Origin: Actinomycetota bacterium
Lineage (GTDB): Bacteria; Actinomycetota; AC-67
Assembly: GCA_044866075.1 (NCBI GenBank)
Contig: JBIOTQ010000115.1
Span: 10,607 to 74,606 of the forward strand
DNA length: 64,000 bases
Direction of reading: 5' to 3'
Shown here: piece by piece, positions 23,925-54,973 of the stretch
Numbering within the stretch: the stretch's first letter is position 1
How the letters are laid out: the number at the start of each line of letters is the position of its first letter
Translations under genes and position numbers: made by a program
Notes under the pieces: model-generated
The model's database searches: none
What the model saw: the letters and a program-made list of their open reading frames with translations, nothing else
Told to the model about the DNA's origin: nothing

Positions 23925-25469
23925 CTACGGCGTTGGTTCCGGCTTTCTCTTCTCGCGACTCCCTCGCCGCGCCGCGCGGTTCAGCGCGTTGAGGAACGCA
24001 CGGGCGCTCGCCTCGACGACGTCCGTCGAGATTCCCCGGCCGGTGAAGCGCTCCCCCTCGACCTCGACCTGAACGGTCACGTCGCCGAGCGCTTCGGAGC
24101 CTTCCGTCACCGCCGCGATGTTGAAGGAATAGAGCCGCGCCTCGGCCGACGTCGCGCGCATGATCGCGCCGAACGCGGCGTCGACCATCCCGTCGCCCAT
24201 CGCGGACTCTTGGATCGTCTCTCCGTTCTTGGTGATCTTCACCGTCGCCGTCGGGGCCAGGTGCGTGCCGCCGGCGACCTGGAGGGACTCGAGGCGATAC
24301 ACCTCCTCGACGGTCTGGATCTCGTCGACCACGATCGCTTCGAGGTCCTTGTCGGTGATCTGGATCTTGCGATCGACCAGCTCCTTGAAGCGCGCGAACG
24401 CGCGGTTCAGCTCTTCCTTGCCGAGCTGGAACCCCATCTCCTCGAGCGTCTTCGAGAAAGCGTGCCGGCCGGAGTGCTTCCCGAGGACGATCTTGCCGCC
24501 CTCGACGCCGATGTCCTCGGCCTTGATGATCTCGTAGGTCAGCCGGTCCTGGATCACGCCGTGCTGATGGATGCCGGACTCGTGCGCGAACGCGTTCTCG
24601 CCCACGATCGCCTTGTTGCGCTGCACCGAGTAGCCGGTCAGCAGCGAGACGAGACGCGACGTACGCGAGAGCTCCTTTGTGTTGATGTTCGTCTCGACGC
24701 CGAGTAGGTCGTGGCGCATCTTGATCGCCATGACGACCTCTTCCAGCGAGCAGTTGCCGGCGCGCTCGCCGATCCCGTTGACCGCGACCTCGACCTGCCG
24801 CGCGCCCGCGCGGACTGCTTCCAGTGAATTCGATACCGCGAGCCCGAGGTCGTTGTGACAGTGCACGGACACGACCACGTCGGCGAGCTTCGGGACGGCC
24901 TTGTAGCACTCGCGGATCAGCTCGCCGAAGTCGAACGGGATCGCGTAGCCGACGGTATCGGGGATGTTGATCGTCGTCGCGCCGGCGTTGATCGCGGCCT
25001 CGACGATCTGGAAGAGGAACTCGGGCTCGGTGCGCGTCGCGTCCTGCGGCGAGAACTCGATGTCCTCGCAGTAGCCTTTCGCGCGCTGGACGCCGTTGAT
25101 CGTCTGCTGGAGGATCTCGTCCTCGGTCGCGTTCAGCATGTACTTGCGGTGGATGTCCGAGGTCGACAGGAAGACGTGGATGCGCGGCTGGCGCGCGTGC
25201 TGAACGGCCTCCCACGCGCGGTCGATGTCCATGTCGTGCGCGCGCGCGAGCGCCGCGATCGACGGGCCCTTGATGTTCTGGGCGATGGCGCTGACCGCTT
25301 CGAAGTCCCCTGGAGAGGTGACGGGGAAGCCGGCCTCGATGATGTCGACGCCGAGCCGGGCGAGCTGCTCCGCGATCTCCAGCTTCTCTTTGACGTTGAG
25401 ATTGATCCCTGGCGACTGCTCGCCGTCCCTCAGCGTCGTATCGAAGATCCGTACGCGGTTATCGCCCAT
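23925..25469 (-). CDS. leuA: 2-isopropylmalate synthase
   Basis: [17 protein letters not shown]... HMGL-like domain plus the LeuA dimerisation/regulatory C-terminus. ATG at 25469 is preceded by GGAGGAGG; the track start at 25514 is TTG. Confidence 0.9.
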
Positions 25470-25515
25470 CTCCAACCCCTCCTCCGTGTCCTGTTTCGGC
25501 ACTTTTCCCGCCAAC

Positions 25516-25543: not shown

Positions 25544-25709
25544 GCGCGCACGCCAGAAAGGCGAGCGCGCCGTCAAAGCAGGAGGAGCGCCGACCGATAA
25601 GCCCTCGAAGTCGTCCTGTCGCGGGGATTCTGTCAGAGGGCGTTGGGAGTGTCAACGAGGTTCTGGGGAGTGGATGCGGGCGCCCGCCGAAGCTAGGGTC
25701 CTCAGGAGA

Positions 25710-38371: not shown

Positions 38372-39373
38372 ATGAGACGGCGCTCGGGGGCGCGGATCCT
38401 CCTAGGGTGTGTTGCGCTGGGCGTCCTCGTTCCGTCCTGCCTCTTCGTGCCGGGCAACAACCCCGTCGACGCCTATCGGTCGGCGCGGAGGCTGGCGGAG
38501 TTCGATGAGGTGGACCCAAGGATTCCGCACATCACGATCGTGCTCCACGCGTTCCGCGAGGACGCGATCGACGTCTATTCGCCCGGCTCTGAGGAAGAAC
38601 AGATCTTTATCGCCGAGGCTGCCGCGGCATCCTTCGGTGAATCGTTCCCCGTCGCGGAGCCGAACTTCTTCGAGGACAACCGCGCGGATGTGCAGCTCGG
38701 GCACAGGCTGCTCAAACGTGAGGGAGACCTCTACACCCTGACCGTGCCGACTCAGGGACTGCAGGCCGCGGTCGAGAGCCGTGAATACTCGGGTTTCGAT
38801 CTCCTCATCTGTCCGCCGAATGCAGAAGCCGTCTTCCTCGCTTCCCGACCTCCGGATTTCGAGGCGTGTATCAACGGCCGGGCATGGGAGGTCGGCGACG
38901 AGCGCCTGACCGTCACGGTGACCGTCCGTCCACGAACCGCCCACTACCTCATCTTCGTGGCCTCGGTCATCCTCGGCCTCGTGCTGCTGGGCGCGCTCGC
39001 ATGGTTCGTCGGGAGCCGCTTGCGCGAGGGGCCGTTCCGGAACCGAACCTCGTCGGCGGTCGCGCTCGGCCTGATCGTCGGGGTGCTCGCGGGAGGCGGC
39101 GTCGCGTGGTCGATCGCCAGCGCGGCGATGCAGCTGGGCCCCTCCGACAACATCGCCCTTTCGAAGGACCTCGGGGTCGGTCTTTATGCCTTGTCGGCCG
39201 CCCTCCCCGCTCTGGCGGGGGCGATCCCCGGCCTCATCTTCCTGATCCTTCTGGTGAAACGGCGGCCGTGGCCGGATCAGCTCAGACCGGAACTGCCGGC
39301 GTTCCCGCCACCCCCGCCGCCCGGCGGCCCCGGATCATCTCCACCGCCGCCGCTTCCGTTCGGCGGTCGCTAG
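38372..39373 (+). CDS. lipoprotein/membrane protein with C-terminal TM helices and proline-rich tail (hypothetical)
   Basis: ATG at 38372. [17 protein letters not shown] signal and possible lipobox, a ~200-aa extracytoplasmic domain, 3 TM helices, and a C-terminal [19 protein letters not shown] tail. Confidence 0.5.
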
Positions 39374-40113
39374 GAGGGTCCGGCCACGCCGGGTGTTCCG
39401 GGCGGGGTCGGCGCCGGGCCTTCCCACACGGGAGCACCTCCGGCGTCGATGCCGAGCCCTCGCAGGAGCGCATCCTCCATCGCTTCGTCGTCGTCGAAAT
39501 GTCCGTTGCCGTCCCCCATCGTCTTGTACCGCCACACCATCCCCCAGATTCCCGCGGTGATGATGGTCAGGAAGATGTACAGTCCGGTGCTCCGTCTCTG
39601 CACGGGTTTCCGTCGCGGCGGGATCGCAGAGGACATCCCGAGCTTCTGCATGATCCACTCGGCGTTCGCTGCGTAACTCGACTCCCATTCGTCGAAGAAG
39701 ATCAGATCCCTGTTGAGGAAGTGGTTGATGTAGGCGCCGACCAAGATCCCCACGTAGGGGATGAAGCGGAGGATCATCCAGAGCACAGGCTCGCGCTTGT
39801 TGCGAAGCTCGAAGGCGTCGATCTGCTGGTAGATACGCGACAGATTGTCGAGTCCTTCGGCGACCTCTTCCCGACGGCCGGCCGACTCGGCACGCGTGTT
39901 GAGCGTGTGCCAGAAGTACGACATGAACGCGAGCCGGCGTCGCGCGTGCTCGCTGCGTCGCTGGACGAGGCGGTAGGTCCCGTAATGCACGTAGAAACCG
40001 AACGTGATGATCGTCCAGCCGAGATAGCTCCAGTAGTTGAAGCGATAGTCGGTCTCGCCTCGTCTGCGAACCTCGGCGACGAGGAATTGTTCGTAGCTAA
40101 GTTGCGTAGCCAT
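39370..40113 (-). CDS. DUF4234-like membrane protein, paralog 2 (internal duplication)
   Basis: Two internal segments with the GxY...WxY-type DUF4234 signature (YWSYLGWTIITFGFYVHYGTY and LYIFLTIITAGIWGMVWRYKT), plus a Pro/Gly-rich tail. About 80% identical to the upstream paralog. Confidence 0.6.
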   Translation of the reverse strand: MATQLSYEQFLVAEVRRRGETDYRFNYWSYLGWTIITFGFYVHYGTYRLVQRRSEHARRRLAFMSYFWHTLNTRAESAGRREEVAEGLDNLSRIYQQIDAFELRNKREPVLWMILRFIPYVGILVGAYINHFLNRDLIFFDEWESSYAANAEWIMQKLGMSSAIPPRRKPVQRRSTGLYIFLTIITAGIWGMVWRYKTMGDGNGHFDDDEAMEDALLRGLGIDAGGAPVWEGPAPTPPGTPGVAGPS

Positions 40114-40940
40114 CAGGGCCGGTCCCGCGGCGCTTGGGGAGGCGGCAGGTGGCCGCTAGGCCCGAACTGGTGGCTCTCGTGCAGTGGCAGGGGCCCCGGG
40201 AGATCGGCCGGCGGTTCTCCAACGCCGGGTGTGCCCGGGGGGTTCACGAAGCCTGATCCCCACGCGGGAACGGCGCCCGGATCGACGCCAATCCCCCGCA
40301 GCAGCGCGTCCTCCATCGCGGCGTCGTCGTCGAAGTGGCCGTTCCCGTCGATCATGGTCTGGTACCGCCAAACGAGCGAGAAGATGCCGAACGTGATGAC
40401 GGTCAAGAATACGTACAGCCCGGTGCTCCGATTGTGCACCGGTCTCGCTCTCTTCGGCACCGACACGGACATGCCGAGTCGCTGCATCACCCATTCGGCG
40501 TTGGCCGCGTAGCTCGACTCCCACTCGTCGAGGAAAACGAAGTCCTTGTTCAAGAAATGGTTGATGTAGGCGCCGACGGGCCCGAAGACAAGGCGCAGGA
40601 TCATCCAGAGGATCGACTCGCGTTTGTTGCGCAAGTCGTACGCGTCGACCTGCTGGTAGATCCGGGAGAGGTTGTCGAGACCCTCCGCGACCTCGTCGCG
40701 GCGGCCCGAGGATTCGGCGCGCTGGTTGAGCGTGTGCCAGAAGTAGGACATGAACGCCAGGCGCCGGCGAACGTGCTGCGCCCGGCGCTCGACGAGCTTG
40801 TAGGTCCCGTAGTGGCCGTAATAGGTGAACGTCAGGATGGTCCAGCCGAGGTAGCTCCAGTAGTTGAAGCGGTAGTCGGTTGCGTCGCGGCGACGCACCT
40901 CCGCCACCAGGAATTGTTCGTAGGTGAGCTGCTGACTCAC
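40113..40940 (-). CDS. DUF4234-like membrane protein, paralog 1
   Basis: MSQQLTYEQFLVAEVRRRDATDYRFNYWSYLGWTILTF.... The start of paralog 2 overlaps its stop (TGATG). Confidence 0.6.
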   Translation of the reverse strand: MSQQLTYEQFLVAEVRRRDATDYRFNYWSYLGWTILTFTYYGHYGTYKLVERRAQHVRRRLAFMSYFWHTLNQRAESSGRRDEVAEGLDNLSRIYQQVDAYDLRNKRESILWMILRLVFGPVGAYINHFLNKDFVFLDEWESSYAANAEWVMQRLGMSVSVPKRARPVHNRSTGLYVFLTVITFGIFSLVWRYQTMIDGNGHFDDDAAMEDALLRGIGVDPGAVPAWGSGFVNPPGTPGVGEPPADLPGPLPLHESHQFGPSGHLPPPQAPRDRP

Positions 40941-48222: not shown

Positions 48223-49367
48223 CGACCGCGCAGCCTGGCCGCGGACGCGATCACAGCGGCCGCGGCCGCGTCGACCTCGGCCTCCGTCGTGGATGGGCCG
48301 AGCGTGAGGCGCAACGCACCGCGCGCGGCCTCCCGCGGCACACCCATCGCGGCGAGAACGTGCGACGGCTCGGCGGCACCCGAGGAACACGCGGACCCCT
48401 GCGAGGCGGCGATCCCGGCCGCATCGAGCAAGAGGATCAGCGACTCGCCGTCGATCCGTTCGAGACAGAGGTGAAGGTTGTTGGGAAGGCGCCCGGCGCC
48501 GCGCGCGTTGACGCGCACGTCCGGAAGCCCGGCGGTGATGCGCTCCTCGAGCCGGTCGCGAAGAGCTGCGACCCGCGCCCCCTCGCCGGCCCGCGCCGCC
48601 ACCCAGCTCTCGATCGCCGCACCGAAGCCGACGATGCCGGCGACGTTGTAGGTGCCGGAACGGACCTCGCGCTCCTGCCCGCCGCCGTGGATCAAGGGCT
48701 GGACCTTCACGCCGCGCCGCACGACCGCCGCGCCGACGCCCTTGGGTCCGCCGATCTTGTGCGCGGACAGCGACAGCAGGTCGGCCGCACGCGCGTCGAC
48801 GTCGAGCCACGCAACACCCTGCACCGCGTCCGAATGGAACACCGCGCCGGCGGCGCGCGCGATCCGCGCCGCATCGGCGACCGGCTCGACGGTGCCGGTC
48901 TCGTTGTTCGCCCACATAACGCTCACGAGCGCCGTCTTGTCGTCGACCGCGGCCTCGAGGGCATCGAGCCGCACGACCCCGTTCGCGTCGACGCCAACCT
49001 CGCGCACGCGGAAGCCCTGCCGCGCCAGCCATCGGGCGGGGTCGAGCACCGCGTGGTGCTCGATCATCGTCACCACGACGCCGTCGCGTCCCTGCTCCCG
49101 GCCGTGCCAGGCCACGCCCTTGACCGCGAGGTTGTCCGCCTCGGTGCCGCCGGACGTGAAGACGATCTCGTCGGGGCGCGCGTTCACGGCGGCGGCGACG
49201 CGCTCGCGCGCCTCGTCGACGGCCTTGCGCGCCTCGCGGCCGGCCGCGTGGACGCTCGAAGCGTTCCCGAACCGGTCGCCGAGGAACGGCTCCATCGCCG
49301 CTCGCGCCGCATCGGAGAGCGGCGTCGTTGCGGCATGATCCAGATAGACGGACGTCTGCGTTTGCAC
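48219..49367 (-). CDS. iscS: cysteine desulfurase (IscS/NifS family, class V aminotransferase fold)
   Basis: ...LSLSAHKIGGPKGVGAA... PLP-Lys motif and the C-terminal SxHxLxAMG region. Confidence 0.85.
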   Translation of the reverse strand: MQTQTSVYLDHAATTPLSDAARAAMEPFLGDRFGNASSVHAAGREARKAVDEARERVAAAVNARPDEIVFTSGGTEADNLAVKGVAWHGREQGRDGVVVTMIEHHAVLDPARWLARQGFRVREVGVDANGVVRLDALEAAVDDKTALVSVMWANNETGTVEPVADAARIARAAGAVFHSDAVQGVAWLDVDARAADLLSLSAHKIGGPKGVGAAVVRRGVKVQPLIHGGGQEREVRSGTYNVAGIVGFGAAIESWVAARAGEGARVAALRDRLEERITAGLPDVRVNARGAGRLPNNLHLCLERIDGESLILLLDAAGIAASQGSACSSGAAEPSHVLAAMGVPREAARGALRLTLGPSTTEAEVDAAAAAVIASAARLRGR

Positions 49368-49426
49368 GACGGACAGGCTAGCGCGGATGGACCGCGTTCA
49401 CGCGAGATCCGGCTGGACGTGCCCGG

Positions 49427-51619
49427 TCAGGCGATCAGCGGGCCGTTCGGGATCGTGTTCGCTTCGGCGGTCGTGATGGAAAACGCTGCCGCCGTCGAGT
49501 ACCCCATCGCGACGTAGAGGCTGTCGTTGTAGAAGGGGCGTTTGACGCCGTCCGCGTAGATCCATCGGGTCCCGGTCGGGCCCTTCAGGAGAGTTCCTTC
49601 GCGATAGGTCATCGGGGTCCCCACAGGGATCGCGACGTCGACGATGCTCATCGGAACGATCTCCGCGTCGCGATACCGGGACTTCCAGACGGTCACCGTG
49701 GGGTTGCGTCGCCGGAACCCGTTGTCGATCGTCCAGACGCTTCCGTCCGAGGCGCGTACGACGGCTCCTTGTGGGTGCACGGTGCCGTCAGAAATGTCCG
49801 GGCCCGTCGGCAGAGTCGCTAACTCCAGAGCGCTGATCGGGAGAGCCGAGGCGGCGGTGTATTTGAGCGCTTCGTAGACGCCGTCGTCGAACTGCCGAAC
49901 CTTTCCGGCGGAGTAGATCGCGTGCGTCCCGTCGGGCTCGGTCAGGAGCGTCCCTTCGCGAAGCTCGAGCGGGGATCCCGACGGATAACGGTCGACTTCT
50001 TGATCGGTCGTCGCGACGACCTCCGCCGCGCGGTACCAGCTGTTGAGCACCAGCTGCGACGTCACGAGGCGTGCCTTGCCGTCCTCGATCACGACGGTGC
50101 GAGTCGGCGTGCGGAGGATCGTGCCGTTCGGATGCTTGGTGACGAAGTAGGCGAGAAGGCTCGCGGGCCGAGCGACCAAGCTCCTCACGCTGGCCTTGAT
50201 CCTGACGGGCACGGCGCCCGTGTAGTCGGCCAGCGTTCCGACCGCCGTTCGTCCGTTCCACGTCGCGGTGAGGGATGAGCCGTAGCCGGTCAGCTTACGG
50301 AGGACCCCGCTGCCGCCGACCGTGAGGAACTCCACGCTCCAACTGAGACTCCTCGAGAACGTCGCCCGCACCGTCACGGTCTCGTTCTTGGTGTCCCCAT
50401 CGGGCCTGAGCACGGTCGACGAGATGGTCGGCAGGTAGATCTTCGGCAGCCCCATCGCGGCCACCGCTTTACGGATCGACGGAAGCAAGTAATAGGCCTT
50501 GGCGCCGGGGCACGCGGTCTGTTGCCCGTCGCGGTGGCCGGAGATCCGGTTGAAGGTCACCCTCGTCCCCGCCGCGTACTTGGGATTCCCTCCGGAGGTC
50601 ATCGTCACCTTGCCGGTGGGCGGCAGGTGGTGGACGTCGAGCTTCCACGCCAGCAGACGCTTCAAGGCGCTCTGCATCGCCGTCGTGGGTGTGGAGGACG
50701 TGAACGTGCCCATGAGCGAGATGCCGGTGCTTCCGGTGTTGAAGCCCTTCACGTGGGCGCCGATGACCGGCTTCGTCATGCCGCCGTACCGGCCCTCGAA
50801 GATCTGGCCGTAGCGGTCGACCAGGAAGTTGTAGCCGATGTCGCTCCAGCCGCGGTTGCTCGTGTGGAACTTGTAGATGCTGCGCACGAGAGCCGCGGAC
50901 TGGGACCTCGAGTACGAGTTCGTCCCGGCGGTGTGATGGACGAACGCCATCTGCACGGCCGGCGCGTACCGCGGGCAGCACTCGCGCCAGCTCTCGTTCG
51001 CTCCCCACTGCCGGCGCGTGATGATCGACGGCGTCGACGTCATCGCCTCTGCCTCGGTGCCGTGGAAGAACCGCGAGATGGCCGCGATGACCCGCTGGAA
51101 CAGGTTCAGCGGCTGCGAGTCGCCGAGCGAGTTGACGACGTGGGCGCGGAGGTCGAAGACCGCCGGAGCGCCGGGTTTGGCCGTGACGCGGTACGCCATC
51201 GCGTCCGCCGTCCCGACCCAGATCGGTGCGGTGAAGATTCGGTTGGCCGCGCGCTGCGCTTCGCGGGCCGACGTGTCGGGACCCTCGTCGGGCTCGACGG
51301 GCATCTCCTCCCAGGCGCCCCACCCGCTCTGCGTGTGGAAACGCGCCGTGATCGAGATGCCTTCTTCGATGGCGTCGTCGTCACGCGTGGTCGTCCGGAA
51401 GGACATCGCGACGAGGTTCGCTTGGATCGGCAGGCGGCGTGACGAGCGCTCGAGGGACGCGCCCGCTGCGCGCGATGCGGTCACGCGCTGTCCGCGCGCG
51501 AGCTCGAACGATCGATCGAGAGTTGCAGGGAAGCGCGGCTTAGCCGGCGCGGGTAGCGGAACGAGAACGGCCCACAGACTGGCGATGAGGGCGACGATGA
51601 ACAGGCGCCTGCGGATCAT
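49427..51619 (-). CDS. secreted N-acetylmuramoyl-L-alanine amidase (PGRP/Amidase_2 domain) with large C-terminal extension
   Basis: ATG at 51619. MIRRRLFIVALIASLWAVLVPLPAPA signal. PGRP core (ITRRQWGANESW...FVHHTAG...GWSDIGYNFLVDRYGQIFEGR). About 380 aa of additional beta-rich domains at the C-terminus. Confidence 0.75.
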   Translation of the reverse strand: MIRRRLFIVALIASLWAVLVPLPAPAKPRFPATLDRSFELARGQRVTASRAAGASLERSSRRLPIQANLVAMSFRTTTRDDDAIEEGISITARFHTQSGWGAWEEMPVEPDEGPDTSAREAQRAANRIFTAPIWVGTADAMAYRVTAKPGAPAVFDLRAHVVNSLGDSQPLNLFQRVIAAISRFFHGTEAEAMTSTPSIITRRQWGANESWRECCPRYAPAVQMAFVHHTAGTNSYSRSQSAALVRSIYKFHTSNRGWSDIGYNFLVDRYGQIFEGRYGGMTKPVIGAHVKGFNTGSTGISLMGTFTSSTPTTAMQSALKRLLAWKLDVHHLPPTGKVTMTSGGNPKYAAGTRVTFNRISGHRDGQQTACPGAKAYYLLPSIRKAVAAMGLPKIYLPTISSTVLRPDGDTKNETVTVRATFSRSLSWSVEFLTVGGSGVLRKLTGYGSSLTATWNGRTAVGTLADYTGAVPVRIKASVRSLVARPASLLAYFVTKHPNGTILRTPTRTVVIEDGKARLVTSQLVLNSWYRAAEVVATTDQEVDRYPSGSPLELREGTLLTEPDGTHAIYSAGKVRQFDDGVYEALKYTAASALPISALELATLPTGPDISDGTVHPQGAVVRASDGSVWTIDNGFRRRNPTVTVWKSRYRDAEIVPMSIVDVAIPVGTPMTYREGTLLKGPTGTRWIYADGVKRPFYNDSLYVAMGYSTAAAFSITTAEANTIPNGPLIA

Positions 51620-51732
51620 TTTCCCCCCAAGGGTCGACCAAACCGATATCGGAAGAGTAGTCGGCAAGGAAAGATAATGGCTTGAGCGATGCGAGCCTTT
51701 TGTGAGGCTGGCGAGAATTCTGTGAGAAAGTT

Positions 51733-51768
51733 GTGGATCCGCACATGGATCCGCACATGGATCCGCGG
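51733..51768. repeat. tandem repeat, about 2.8 copies of the 12-nt unit GGATCCGCACAT
   Basis: GTGGATCCGCACATGGATCCGCACATGGATCCGCGG, inside an unusually AT-rich spacer between the secreted-protein gene and the amidase gene. Confidence 0.6.
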
Positions 51769-51785
51769 ACGGGTGCTTGCTTCGT

Positions 51786-53399
51786 CTACCCGATCACGAA
51801 GCCGTCGACGGCGATGATCCGGTCGGTCGATCTGCTGTTCCGCGTCGACGCCACCTTGATCGTGATCGTGTGAGTGCCGGCGGGCAGGTTCAGGATCGCG
51901 CGCAGGACCTTGTACGTCGTCGTCGAGCTGTAGTTGTCGAACAGTCCCTTCCGCACGCCGTCGATGTAGACGTACGCCTGCCCCATCGCCGGGCCGCGGA
52001 CCGTGCGCCACGCGATGCTCGTTCCGCTGAAGACGAAGCTCATCTCGGTTCCCGAGAACCGCGCGGCACGATAGGTCCCGCCGTCCGCGCCCGACGCGCT
52101 GATCGCCGCCCACCGGAACGATAGCGAGGGCGTGACGTTCGTCGAGCCGCCCGAGCGGAACGCGTCGATCGCCACCCGGACGTCCTTGGCCGCGCTCGAG
52201 CCCTTGCTTCCGGTCACGCGGATCGTGATGGTGTGCGCGCCAGCGGAGAGCCCTGAGAAGCTGCGGCCGACCTTGTACCGGGTCGACGACGAGTAGTTGT
52301 TCACGGTGCCAAACGATCGCCCGTCGATCGAAACGCTCGCCTTGCCCTGGTACGGGTCGGTGATCGTGTACCAGGCGATCGAGCTGCCGCTGAATCTGTA
52401 GGCGATAGAGGCGCCGGGCATGTTGTTCACGTAGTAGCTGCCTCCGTACGTCGACGAGTTCGAGAGGCTTCGCCATCCGTAGCGGACGCCGGGCGCGATC
52501 TCGTTCACGTTCGTGGCCGCCCGGAACTGGTCCGTCTTGTCGTCGAGCTCGTTGCCGGCGCGGTCCGTGATCGAGCCGGGCCCGTTCGGAAGCAGGACGG
52601 CGTCGTACTCCTGGCCGGCGGTGAGGTCTGAGACCGTGTTGGCCACGATGGTGTTCGTCGCCGAATCGTAGGACACGGTGACCGGGACTTCCGTCAGCGT
52701 GCCGTGGAGGCGCAGTGCCACGGAGCTCTGGCCGACGCCGACGACCGGCTCGCTGATCTTCCACGAGAGGTTCGCGCTCTGGTTGGCCGGCGCAGTGAAC
52801 AGGGCGGTCGGTGCGACCGTATCGGCGATGACCTGGTGCGATGGAACCGCCGTGATGCTCGGATCGAGCAGTCCCGTGTCGAAGGCATCCGCCGGCAGGG
52901 TCATCATGAAGTTGTCGCCGTTGGTAACGGAATCGCCCAGGCGGATCGACAGGAAGAACGTGTAGGCGCCCTCCTCCGCGGCCGGGAGCGGGTACGCGGG
53001 ACTGACCGCGAGCGTGGCGCGCAGGTTCGAATCGAACGAGAAGGTCGTCGGGACGACCGCGTCTGCGCCATCGAGCTTGTCCTGATTGGCACCCACCATT
53101 GAACTGTCGCGCCAAAGCTCGATGCCGTCGGGGTTGGCCTCGAGGTCGTCGACCCCGAACGTGCCGCCACCGGTCACCTGCGCGAAATCGACCCGGACCT
53201 CGCTGAGGTTGGTGGAGAGGCCGCTGCTGATCAGATCGATCCCGAACACGGGAACGTCGACGCCGATCTTCATGTACTGAGGGTTCGCGGTCAGGTCCGC
53301 GCCGCTCGGGCTCACGGCCATGGCCGGAACGGCCCCCGTCCCGATCGCCAGCAAGGCAACGGTCGTCACCGTAAGGACTCGTAGGAAACGCCTCATCAC
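51786..53399 (-). CDS. secreted cell-surface protein with Ig-like N-terminal region and two C-terminal ~105-aa beta-sandwich (CBM/SbsA-like) repeats
   Basis: Signal MMRRFLRVLTVTTVALLAIGTGAVPAMA. Internal repeats ...SIAWYTITDPYQGKASVSIDGRSFGTVNNYSSSTRYKV...GAHTITIRV... and ...SIAWRTVRGPAMGQAYVYIDGVRKGLFDNYSSTTTYKV...GTHTITIKV.... Confidence 0.6.
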   Translation of the reverse strand: MMRRFLRVLTVTTVALLAIGTGAVPAMAVSPSGADLTANPQYMKIGVDVPVFGIDLISSGLSTNLSEVRVDFAQVTGGGTFGVDDLEANPDGIELWRDSSMVGANQDKLDGADAVVPTTFSFDSNLRATLAVSPAYPLPAAEEGAYTFFLSIRLGDSVTNGDNFMMTLPADAFDTGLLDPSITAVPSHQVIADTVAPTALFTAPANQSANLSWKISEPVVGVGQSSVALRLHGTLTEVPVTVSYDSATNTIVANTVSDLTAGQEYDAVLLPNGPGSITDRAGNELDDKTDQFRAATNVNEIAPGVRYGWRSLSNSSTYGGSYYVNNMPGASIAYRFSGSSIAWYTITDPYQGKASVSIDGRSFGTVNNYSSSTRYKVGRSFSGLSAGAHTITIRVTGSKGSSAAKDVRVAIDAFRSGGSTNVTPSLSFRWAAISASGADGGTYRAARFSGTEMSFVFSGTSIAWRTVRGPAMGQAYVYIDGVRKGLFDNYSSTTTYKVLRAILNLPAGTHTITIKVASTRNSRSTDRIIAVDGFVIG

Positions 53400-53539
53400 G
53401 TCGAGCTCCCGGATCGGCTGAACCTCACCCTGTCAACGGGTCAGGACCGGAGCGGTTGCGGCGGACGGCCTCATCGTCCGATCGTACGGCCCCGATCGAA
53501 CCCGGTTCGCCATACTTCGCCCGAAAGATCGTCGATGGA

Positions 53540-54973
53540 TCAGCGTTCGGCGAACCGGCGGAACAAGCCCTCGGTCCCCGCGAGCCGGCCTTCGAGCTCG
53601 GAGTCGTTCGAGAGCACGATCTGGGTCGGAGGCGTCCCCCAACGCTCCAACTCCTCGTACAGCTCGATCAACGGTGTCGGGTCGTCCGTCCGTGGACGGA
53701 TGTAGACGAAGAACTGGCCCGACGGTTCACCGCCGACGAGCTCGATCTGCCACTGCGCCGCACGCGGCGCCGCGGAGACGGCCGCGAAGCGGAAGTCGAA
53801 CCGCACGGCCCGGCCGTCGAGCTTCACGCGACGCTGCCACGCGCCGCGACGCACGCTCGGCCCGACGCGCGGCACCGTCCGCCCGCAGTTCGGGCACGGC
53901 TGCGTCGTCACGCCGCCGAGCGCGAGGTCGCCCGAGCGCCACCGCGGCACGCCGCCGCCGCGGAACCCGAGCGGCGTGAGCGCGATCTCGCCCGGCGACT
54001 GCTGGCCCATCGGCTCGCCCGTCTCCGGGCTGAGCACCTCGATCACTTCCAGGTCGGGCGACGTGTGGAACCCAAAGGTCTCGGTCTTGCCGGCGGGAAC
54101 CGCGCACTCGGCCCAGAGGATGCGTCCTTCGGCGACACCATAGGCCGCGGCGATGCGCGCCTGCGATGCGTTCGACGCGGCGAGCTCTGCCCCCAGCCGC
54201 TCGCGTTCCGCTCGCGTGAGCGAGCGTCCGACGGCGATCACTACGGCGAGCTCGGACAGATCCACGCCCGCCTCACGCGCCGTCGCCGGAAAGTCGACCA
54301 CTTCCTCCGCGGCGACGGCGACCGCGGTCGGCCGCGCGGACTCGAACGCCCACAGCGCGCGGGCGAGCTCGCCGCCTTCGCGGCGCGAGTGGATCGCGCT
54401 CATCCCGACGCCGTGCGCCATGTAGTAGATGCCCCAGAAGTCGAGCGTCGGTCCGAACGGGATCAGGTTGAGCAACCGGTCGGTGCGTTCGAGACCGACG
54501 AGTTTCGCGGCACGGGCGCCGCCGCGTGCGAACAGGTCGAGGTCGTCGCGGGTGTAGGCGACTGTGATCGGACCGCCGGGCCCGGGCGCGAGATGGATGT
54601 GGATCGGCCGCGAGGCCGCCTCGATCGCGAGCTGTTGGACCTCCTCACCGCCGAAGAGACGCGCGGTCGCGACGCGGTACAGGACGCTGCGGTCGCTGAA
54701 GCGGCGGACGCCTTCCGAGGTTCCTTGGAGGATCAACCCCTGCGCGCCGTCCGGATTCCGGACCTGATCGAGGACCTCGACGCGCGTTGCCGGCGGGATC
54801 TGAGCGAGCTCGTCCAGTCCCTTGATCCGGCGGGCGTCGATGCCGGCCGCTTCCAGGCGCGCGCGCGCCGTCGGCACGTGACCGAGCTGCATCTGGAGCA
54901 GCGTCTGACGCACGAGCTGATCCTGGATGCGCCGGTTCTCGCTGGGTGAACGGTGGTCCCACGGGCGCGCCAC
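53540..54973 (-). CDS. phenylacetate-CoA ligase-like / F390-synthetase-like adenylate-forming enzyme
   Basis: PaaK-family architecture (N-terminal adenylation lobe, C-terminal ...CPNCGRTVPRV... region). I could not verify the AMP-binding motifs by alignment. Confidence 0.55.
   Translation of the reverse strand: MARPWDHRSPSENRRIQDQLVRQTLLQMQLGHVPTARARLEAAGIDARRIKGLDELAQIPPATRVEVLDQVRNPDGAQGLILQGTSEGVRRFSDRSVLYRVATARLFGGEEVQQLAIEAASRPIHIHLAPGPGGPITVAYTRDDLDLFARGGARAAKLVGLERTDRLLNLIPFGPTLDFWGIYYMAHGVGMSAIHSRREGGELARALWAFESARPTAVAVAAEEVVDFPATAREAGVDLSELAVVIAVGRSLTRAERERLGAELAASNASQARIAAAYGVAEGRILWAECAVPAGKTETFGFHTSPDLEVIEVLSPETGEPMGQQSPGEIALTPLGFRGGGVPRWRSGDLALGGVTTQPCPNCGRTVPRVGPSVRRGAWQRRVKLDGRAVRFDFRFAAVSAAPRAAQWQIELVGGEPSGQFFVYIRPRTDDPTPLIELYEELERWGTPPTQIVLSNDSELEGRLAGTEGLFRRFAER

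Follow-up and report, generated by a model that had tools for sequence, protein, structure and literature searches.

The 64-kb stretch of DNA analysed here (hereafter the window; 68% GC, from an uncultured member of the Actinomycetota) carries on its minus strand, between positions 49427 and 53399, two genes whose products are both predicted to be secreted, namely an amidase and a protein of 537 amino acids (aa). The original prediction had described two large secreted envelope proteins flanking an AT-rich spacer with a tandem repeat of 12 nucleotides (nt), and this arrangement is indeed seen in the sequence, with small corrections. The gene pair and its micro-duplication are ordinary; what is notable is the conserved sigma-28/WhiG-like promoter that precedes an amidase probably of the Rv3811 type. 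The picture proposed below, which taken as a whole appears reasonably probable, is that of two secreted cell-wall proteins whose pairing is conserved within a sparsely sampled, uncultured lineage of high-GC Actinomycetota. The amidase would be a modular autolysin built on a zinc-dependent N-acetylmuramoyl-L-alanine amidase core of the PGRP/T7-lysozyme type (Rv3811/Ami3 kind). Each gene would have its own alternative-sigma promoter, WhiG/FliA-like for the amidase and resembling those of extracytoplasmic function (ECF) sigma factors for the 537-aa protein. The 12-nt repeat would be a slippage duplication, arisen in this species alone, 3′ of the upstream gene's stop codon and 5′ of the promoter.

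A conserved promoter-like element in front of the amidase gene

The element CTCA-N17-GCCGACTA lies on the gene strand, 38-67 nt 5′ of the amidase ATG. About 110 nt beside this ATG are conserved at a level of ~90% in genomes with an amidase identity of 69-81%, including one locus (L003) where another gene stands upstream. This locus has lost the 537-aa gene but still keeps the amidase element. Each of the ten orthologous loci, with amidases 57-81% identical, retains both blocks of the element, and the sequence between the blocks diverges. Their spacing is 17 nt in nine loci and 18 nt in the tenth (L004); a single mismatch in the -10 block occurs in L089 and L004, as well as in L034 and L037 of the Thermoleophilia loci described below. 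The distant orthologues (57-60%) keep (C/T)TCA, a variable gap of 17 nt and (G/T)(C/T)CGA-N-TA, together with an upstream GGCTCGCAnCG and the ribosome-binding site. In the 826 kb formed by the window and the fetched loci, the strict form of the motif has no other occurrence, and no sigma-70 consensus promoter was found in 51300-53800.

For the actinobacterial WhiG family (sigma-28/FliA/SigD), the published search patterns are T(A/C)AA-N16-GCCGA and CTCA-N16-17-GCCGA, the central CGA being the most conserved part (PMC12871210; PMC8325347). The criteria adopted here follow the first of these papers: a -35 block T(A/C)AA or CTCA, a spacer of 16-17 nt, a -10 block GCCGA and a distance of at most 200 nt from the start codon (PMC12871210). 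The window element fits both patterns exactly, in its blocks and in their spacing. As in the promoters of WhiG1/WhiG2 targets, it is intergenic and less than 200 nt away from the start codon.

The true start of the amidase, as judged from the sequences, is ATG 51619 (730 aa) and not TTG 51667 (746 aa), because the orthologues measure 728-730 aa, because a GGGGGG ribosome-binding site precedes the ATG and because the conserved promoter falls inside the putative extension from the TTG. The features of the locus are collected in Table 1.

The terminator scan also pointed out, on the plus strand at 51679-51697, GGCTTGAGCGATGCGAGCC followed by TTTTGTGAGG, a hairpin with a T-run that is antisense to the amidase and corresponds to the reverse complement of the block 5′ of the -35. 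This dyad is probably incidental because it is not kept in the orthologues.

Table 1. Features of the two-gene locus, with positions in the window
Feature	Positions	Strand	Basis or remark
Gene of the amidase, 730 aa	49427..51619	-	List of open reading frames; start ATG 51619
C-terminal extension of the amidase, residues 495-730: two 115-aa modules, each of two ~57-aa units	49430..50137	-	Self-alignment and AlphaFold2 model
Amidase_2 / PGRP catalytic core, residues 221-372	50504..50959	-	Pfam and PDB matches
Ribosome-binding site GGGGGG, 3 nt 5′ of ATG	51623..51628	-	Sequence; (T)GGGGG in all orthologues
Predicted -10 GCCGACTA, sigma-28/WhiG-type	51658..51665	-	(G/T)(C/T)CGA in 10/10 orthologous loci; consensus from PMC12871210 and PMC8325347
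Predicted -35 CTCA(A)	51682..51686	-	CTCA 51686-51683; reads CTCA-N17-GCCGA and also TCAA-N16-GCCGA
Conserved block GGCTCGCATCG directly 5′ of the -35; candidate extended -35, UP-like element or activator site	51687..51697	-	Alignment of orthologues
12-nt tandem repeat TGGATCCGCACA (ATGTGCGGATCC on the gene strand), 2.8 perfect copies	51734..51766	.	Tandem Repeats Finder
Gene of the 537-aa secreted protein	51786..53399	-	Open reading frame; signal peptide, N-terminal beta domain (~32-190), Big_5, two CBM35/CBM6-like jelly rolls
Two CE2_N / CBM35-like beta jelly rolls, residues ~297-419 and 420-537	51789..52511	-	Profile and fold match
Big_5 Ig-like domain, residues 193-288	52536..52823	-	
GCAACC-N15-CGTT, resembling an ECF-sigma promoter, 5′ of the 537-aa gene	53435..53459	-	GCAACC 53459-53454, CGTT 53438-53435

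Distant homologues and the nature of the element

Beyond the ten orthologous loci, five loci from Thermoleophilia, with amidases ~41% identical to that of the window, all keep CTCAAGGAAsCGAGG-N7-(G/A)CCGAC about 155 nt 5′ of the ATG (5/5; L023:3581, L071:3581, L044:3566, L034:3579 and L037:3579). In a genome collection, the motif with one mismatch allowed was found in 16 of 75 windows upstream of amidases, compared with 24 of 309 windows upstream of neighbouring genes (P 0.0012). Considering this conservation, we hold it fairly probable that the amidase promoter is of the sigma-28/WhiG-FliA type. The amidase would then be transcribed by a sigma factor of the sigma-28 family, and such a control would tie wall cleavage, for example during the separation of daughter cells, to the programme of that sigma factor.

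Several observations weigh against this assignment. Chance alone is expected to give about 0.6 and 2.7 exact matches to the two patterns, a total of ~3.3 when both strands of 64 kb are counted. The window holds three other exact matches, inside genes. So short a consensus is common by chance, so the case rests on conservation. Nine of the ten loci read GCCGA-N-TA, with one base more than GCCGATAA, and the block conserved 5′ of the -35 stands outside the published consensus; both features distinguish the element from the WhiG1/WhiG2 target promoters. No sigma gene (whiG/fliA) was seen in the 64-kb window by a crude pattern search for region 2. In the genome collection, the exact motif occurs in 6 of 75 amidase-upstream windows and 8 of 309 neighbour-gene windows (P 0.037), and the loci compared are related to one another, making both P values optimistic.

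Another factor might be served by the conserved blocks: an ECF sigma factor (-35 xTCAAG, -10 CGAC), the housekeeping sigma factor via a TAnnnT hexamer (TACTCT), or a transcription factor that binds GGCTCGCAnCG. Elements of the CGA type are also found at the -10 of some ECF promoters, and a TAnnnT hexamer directly follows GCCGA-N in 10/10 close orthologues. The sigma-28 consensus leaves the block 5′ of the -35 unexplained, and the crude search that saw no sigma-28 gene in the window is also on the side of this alternative. However, the Thermoleophilia clade retains CTCAAG and (G/A)CCGAC but not TAnnnT; taking TACTCT as the -10 would put non-conserved sequence at the -35; and the WhiG pattern is matched exactly in both blocks and spacing. 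An origin of the conservation in another factor is thereby rather unlikely in our view.

A further possibility would be that the conserved ~110 nt control the wall hydrolase as a structured RNA leader, for instance a riboswitch. The c-di-AMP ydaO element, which controls some actinobacterial hydrolases, would provide a model, and the genomes compared show strong non-coding conservation although their proteins share no more than 69-81% identity. Nevertheless, no Rfam match was obtained at E 1 over 49000-54000 or at E 10 over 51560-51800, and the whole spacer folds at z -0.77 relative to shuffled sequences. Furthermore, the distant orthologues retain only two short blocks and the ribosome-binding site, and a transcription start just after the -10 would leave a leader of ~30 nt. 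A leader RNA is therefore extremely improbable at this locus. In the Thermoleophilia loci, the motif is followed by a conserved leader of ~130 nt (CGTTGAAGCA..., GTCGTCGTCTGAGCAGTAGCGGGAC) and a hairpin, AGGCTGATCAGCCTGCC, lies upstream. This leader has no Rfam match; it could be a structured RNA.

Returning to the sigma-28-type promoter, a parallel may be drawn with Bacillus subtilis. In this bacterium, sigma-D directs the expression of LytC, LytD and LytF from promoters of the type TAAA-N15-GCCGATAA, and LytC belongs to Amidase_3. The vegetative autolysins of B. subtilis are governed by SigD (PMC3865298). In both cases, a wall hydrolase with wall-binding repeats stands behind a promoter of the sigma-28 family. 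The phylum, the amidase family and the wall-binding repeats are however different, and in the window the sigma factor is deduced from the conserved motif only. The reported targets of WhiG1 and WhiG2 are regulators, c-di-GMP enzymes, flagella, chemotaxis and pili, as illustrated by whiH/whiI in Streptomyces, pil in Rubrobacter and flagellar genes in Actinoplanes (PMC12871210; PMC8325347). The main text of the preprint on the WhiG regulon makes no mention of amidase, peptidoglycan or cell wall (PMC12871210), and a literature search of limited scope found no paper linking WhiG to an amidase.

It is tempting to imagine that PGRP amidases of the Rv3811 type are direct targets of the WhiG/FliA family in this lineage, in the Thermoleophilia clade and, in a scattered manner, in Frankiaceae, Nitriliruptoria and Mycobacteriales. 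This generalization is put forward tentatively and may well not hold. The prediction gained, that of a wall amidase within the WhiG/FliA regulon of uncultured Actinomycetota, is of modest value. If the link is true, the coupling of sigma-28 and autolysins known from Bacillus would be either ancient or repeatedly evolved. In some Actinomycetota, WhiG is controlled via c-di-GMP and RsiG. Were the link true, c-di-GMP signalling would further be connected with the cleavage of the wall and the separation of cells in actinobacteria that do not sporulate.

Elsewhere in the window, TCAA-N16-ACCGATAA at 25573-25600 on the plus strand is a candidate WhiG-type site with one mismatch. It lies in a low-GC intergenic region after a leuA-like gene (23925-25514) and precedes a possible small membrane-protein open reading frame and a GNAT-like one.

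The spacer and its 12-nt repeat

The spacer between the two genes (51620..51785) measures 166 nt and has a GC content of 54%, compared with a mean of 68% in the window. It almost coincides with the lowest-GC stretch of the 64 kb, found at 51597-51762 on the scale of 166 nt and at 51639-51738 on the scale of 100 nt, in agreement with its earlier description as anomalously AT-rich. The repeat that had been noticed there, in about 2.8 copies, is likewise recovered by Tandem Repeats Finder (period 12, 2.8 copies, 100% matches, score 66) as the top-scoring tandem repeat of the window. The perfect periodic run of 33 nt is a real duplication, beyond chance. An alignment of the regions upstream of the orthologous amidases describes the repeat region as an insertion of ~26-31 nt present in the species of the window only. 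The repeat is absent from the eight aligned orthologous spacers (L093, L001, L003, L087-L090 and L004) and was also not seen in a ninth, L085, read separately. At the repeat position, L001 (74% amidase identity) has a single GCCGATCCACA, and the closest relative, L093 (81%), has neither the repeat nor GGATCC.

Two metagenome contigs of the same species, L094 and L095, were reached via proteins that cluster with the 537-aa protein at 90% identity; they derive from the sequencing runs SRR30692729 and SRR23419226. Over 4261 and 2746 nt, they match the window at 99.91% and 99.67% identity, respectively, and differ from it by 4 and 9 single-nucleotide changes. Their spacers, the 2.8 copies included, are identical to that of the window base for base. 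A duplication that is recent and fixed at 2.8 copies in the species is what these comparisons indicate.

According to the original prediction, the repeat could be a phase-variable or regulatory element controlling amidase expression. In such a model, slipped-strand changes of copy number would switch or tune the expression of the amidase. The repeat is perfect, it is the best of the window and it is located in the sole intergenic region upstream of the amidase; moreover, the copy number differs between species, with zero or one copy in the relatives versus 2.8 here. On the other hand, three independent samples of the same species all have 2.8 copies, and known contingency loci are better suited to slippage than a 12-nt unit with less than three copies. 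Counted from the outermost of the conserved promoter blocks, the repeat occupies the stretch 37-69 nt upstream (the blocks end at 51697; the stop codon of the upstream gene is at 51786). All conserved blocks are thus downstream of it, and its position is about -84 to -116 relative to the predicted start of transcription. It sits outside the core promoter and outside the reading frame, in the non-conserved part of the spacer. Finally, it is missing from every orthologue although the promoter is kept. The likeness with the contingency loci of Neisseria and Haemophilus is limited to a tandem repeat that precedes a gene for a surface protein; here, the unit is long (12 nt), present in 2.8 copies, outside the core promoter, invariant in the species and absent in relatives. 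The original prediction had named an invariant copy number and a place outside any promoter as grounds for refutation, and both are observed. Phase variation by this repeat is very improbable, and the proposal is not borne out. The broader suggestion of a regulatory spacer finds an echo in the conserved promoter-like element adjoining the amidase gene, not in the repeat.

Alternatively, the repeat might terminate or insulate the transcription of the 537-aa gene by means of a hairpin made of the self-complementary GGAUCC. A 6-bp GGAUCC/GGAUCC hairpin does appear in the predicted fold, followed by ACAACUUUCUC, and the orthologue L088 has a canonical terminator at the equivalent place. However, the scan gave no minus-strand call in the spacer, a terminator is lacking at this place in most orthologues, the U tract is a poor one, and the predicted RNA fold around the repeat is no more stable than those of shuffled sequences (z -0.72). 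A role in termination is accordingly improbable. Altogether, the repeat is very probably neutral, with no detectable role; one point against this view is that its invariance was established on three consensus assemblies rather than on reads.

Other origins or roles of the repeat were considered and rejected. It is not a dispersed genomic element: the 12-mer is found nowhere else in the window, and the count of GGATCC is ordinary (32 sites versus ~22 estimated by hand from base composition). A mobile-element origin of the spacer was dismissed as well, a plasmid collection giving no match. The repeat also creates an open reading frame of 72 aa (51540-51758, minus strand), starting with MCGSMCGS and overlapping the start of the amidase in another frame. 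This frame was not retained as a gene, the repeat that supplies its start being absent in relatives.

The amidase

The amidase is organized as a signal peptide, a putative N-terminal domain of the Rv3811_N type, a PGRP-type Amidase_2 core, a region of ~100 aa and four repeats resembling wall-binding units. The signal peptides of this protein and of its neighbour were judged by eye only. The Amidase_2 core had been termed canonical, and Pfam agrees (PF01510, residues 221-372, 63.8 bits for a cut-off of 26). In the PDB, its nearest solved relatives are PGRPs, with E-values down to 5e-21, and T7 lysozyme (E 1e-7). The residues H229 (H228/H229), Y263, H362, T368 and C370 are invariant across 29 homologues and provide the zinc ligands His, His and Cys and the catalytic Tyr and Lys/Thr expected in this family. 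The spacing H362-x5-T368-x-C370 is that of the His-x5-Lys/Thr-x-Cys motif of T7 lysozyme and PGRPs, which we take to be the zinc site. The enzyme is probably active because its zinc and catalytic residues are invariant in these homologues.

For the N-terminal region, PF27503 (Rv3811_N) is precomputed for the cluster of the window protein and for many homologues, where it is marked as faint or weak; a Pfam scan of this region allowing E-values up to 10 did not report it. Rv3811 is the mycobacterial Ami3 (PMC3987819). Like the window protein, Ami3 is actinobacterial and belongs to the PGRP/T7-lysozyme Amidase_2 family, with a secreted core in which the His/His/Cys zinc ligands are conserved together with Tyr and Thr. 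The predicted amidase of the window differs from Ami3 by its greater length and by its tail of four PlyCB/EccB-like repeats, which relatives exchange for, or supplement with, FG-GAP/VCBS-like or SLH tails.

The C-terminal extension, previously put at about 380 residues, exists but is shorter (~350), and the ~190 further N-terminal residues had been missed. Its last part, residues 495-730, consists of a 115-aa module duplicated in tandem (39% identity, E 7e-23). In the AlphaFold2 model (predicted local distance difference test, pLDDT, 85), this part folds as four beta-beta-beta-helix units of ~57 aa each, similar in fold to the repeats of PlyCB and EccB and to the cell-wall-binding domains of endolysins. 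By sequence, PF05108 (EccB) aligns to the tail with E 0.0019 and 17.4 bits, below the cut-off of 27, and is precomputed in several homologues. Although described as unknown, the extension thus resembles known fold classes in domain and fold searches, with weak matches for the repeats. The resemblance between EccB1 and PlyCB was noted earlier, the binding of peptidoglycan by EccB1 being just suggested (PMC4769845). Contrary to PlyCB, to the domains of the enterococcal endolysins LysIME-EF1/Lys170 and to EccB1, the window protein would have four tandem copies in one chain rather than an oligomer of separate chains, and the sequence similarity is marginal. The four C-terminal repeats probably anchor the amidase to the wall.

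Some homologues of the amidase have a FlgD_ig match somewhere in the protein. Longer homologues of ~950 aa (P0023-P0033, P0077, P0088-P0094) carry about five extra C-terminal repeats of the form 'GDWDGDG...PG..RG..WYL', which are FG-GAP/VCBS-like, and others carry SLH domains (PF00395). The occurrence of such tails among the homologues suggests that the wall anchor is exchangeable.

The 537-aa protein and its putative promoter

The structure model of the 537-aa protein is confident (pLDDT 92). By sequence, no relative of solved structure was found, the database relatives number 44 only, and a catalytic domain was looked for and not found. Two carbohydrate-binding-like repeats of ~105 aa had been described in this protein. 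The two repeats and their likeness to CBM35/CBM6 are retained, whereas their length is ~118 aa each; they are 39% identical to each other (E 7e-28), and the CE2_N jelly roll (CBM35/CBM6-like) is recognized both by profile and by fold.

The part formed by Big_5 and the two carbohydrate-binding modules shares 37-40% identity with the C-terminal part of GH25 lysozymes from actinobacteria. In the Actinomycetota GH25 lysozymes P0146-P0160, Big_5 and two CE2_N-like modules are found C-terminally; P0150 has GH25 at the C-terminal end instead. Since this module is shared with GH25 lysozymes, it may be viewed as a wall-targeting module. The 537-aa protein most likely binds wall glycan, an analogy drawn because related bacteria attach this type of module to GH25 lysozymes. 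As compared with CBM35/CBM6/CBM36, with the N-terminal jelly roll of CE2 and with the GH25 tails, the window protein has an N-terminal beta domain of ~160 aa in the place of GH25. Judging from the sequences, the comparison reflects domain shuffling of a wall-targeting module. The Big_5 and double carbohydrate-binding module, together with the PlyCB/EccB-like repeats, would represent exchangeable wall-targeting parts of actinobacterial hydrolases, which helps to annotate 'hypothetical' proteins of metagenome-assembled genomes.

Promoters used by ECF sigma factors usually show an AAC-containing -35 and a CGT-containing -10. Upstream of the 537-aa gene, seven of the seven aligned orthologous loci keep CGTT and the 15-nt spacing; GCAACC is present in six and replaced by GCACCT in L088, and the sequence between the two blocks varies. 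The 537-aa gene therefore looks as if it had an ECF-sigma promoter, as far as conserved motifs can tell. The two genes seem to be separate transcription units under different alternative sigma factors.

At the locus L003 (69% amidase identity; L003:2018-2163 compared with window 51620-53540), the 537-aa gene has disappeared together with its ECF-like promoter, and the amidase promoter directly follows the AMP-binding gene. The 537-aa gene would thus be dispensable, or the module would have been gained or lost separately. A further conserved block, GGGCGAAGC, is located just 3′ of the stop codon of the AMP-binding gene, at ~53515-53525.

Gene neighbourhood and sampling of the lineage

The gene order is methyltransferase, PaaK-like AMP-binding protein, 537-aa protein, amidase, IscS, MnmA, a small open reading frame, LigA, GatC and GatA. 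The flanks of the pair are housekeeping genes whose synteny is kept in relatives. A scan of the genome collection for close relatives gave a best match of just 53% identity, an exact database look-up of the window amidase returned no record, and a metagenome scan with a profile of the amidase C-terminal part retrieved three loci only.

Further away in the window, two adjacent paralogues of 247 and 275 aa are encoded on the minus strand at 39370-40113 and 40113-40940. Their N-termini are nearly identical (M.TQL.YEQFLVAEVRRR..TDYRFNYWSYLGWTI), and the pair represents a probable membrane protein duplicated in tandem.

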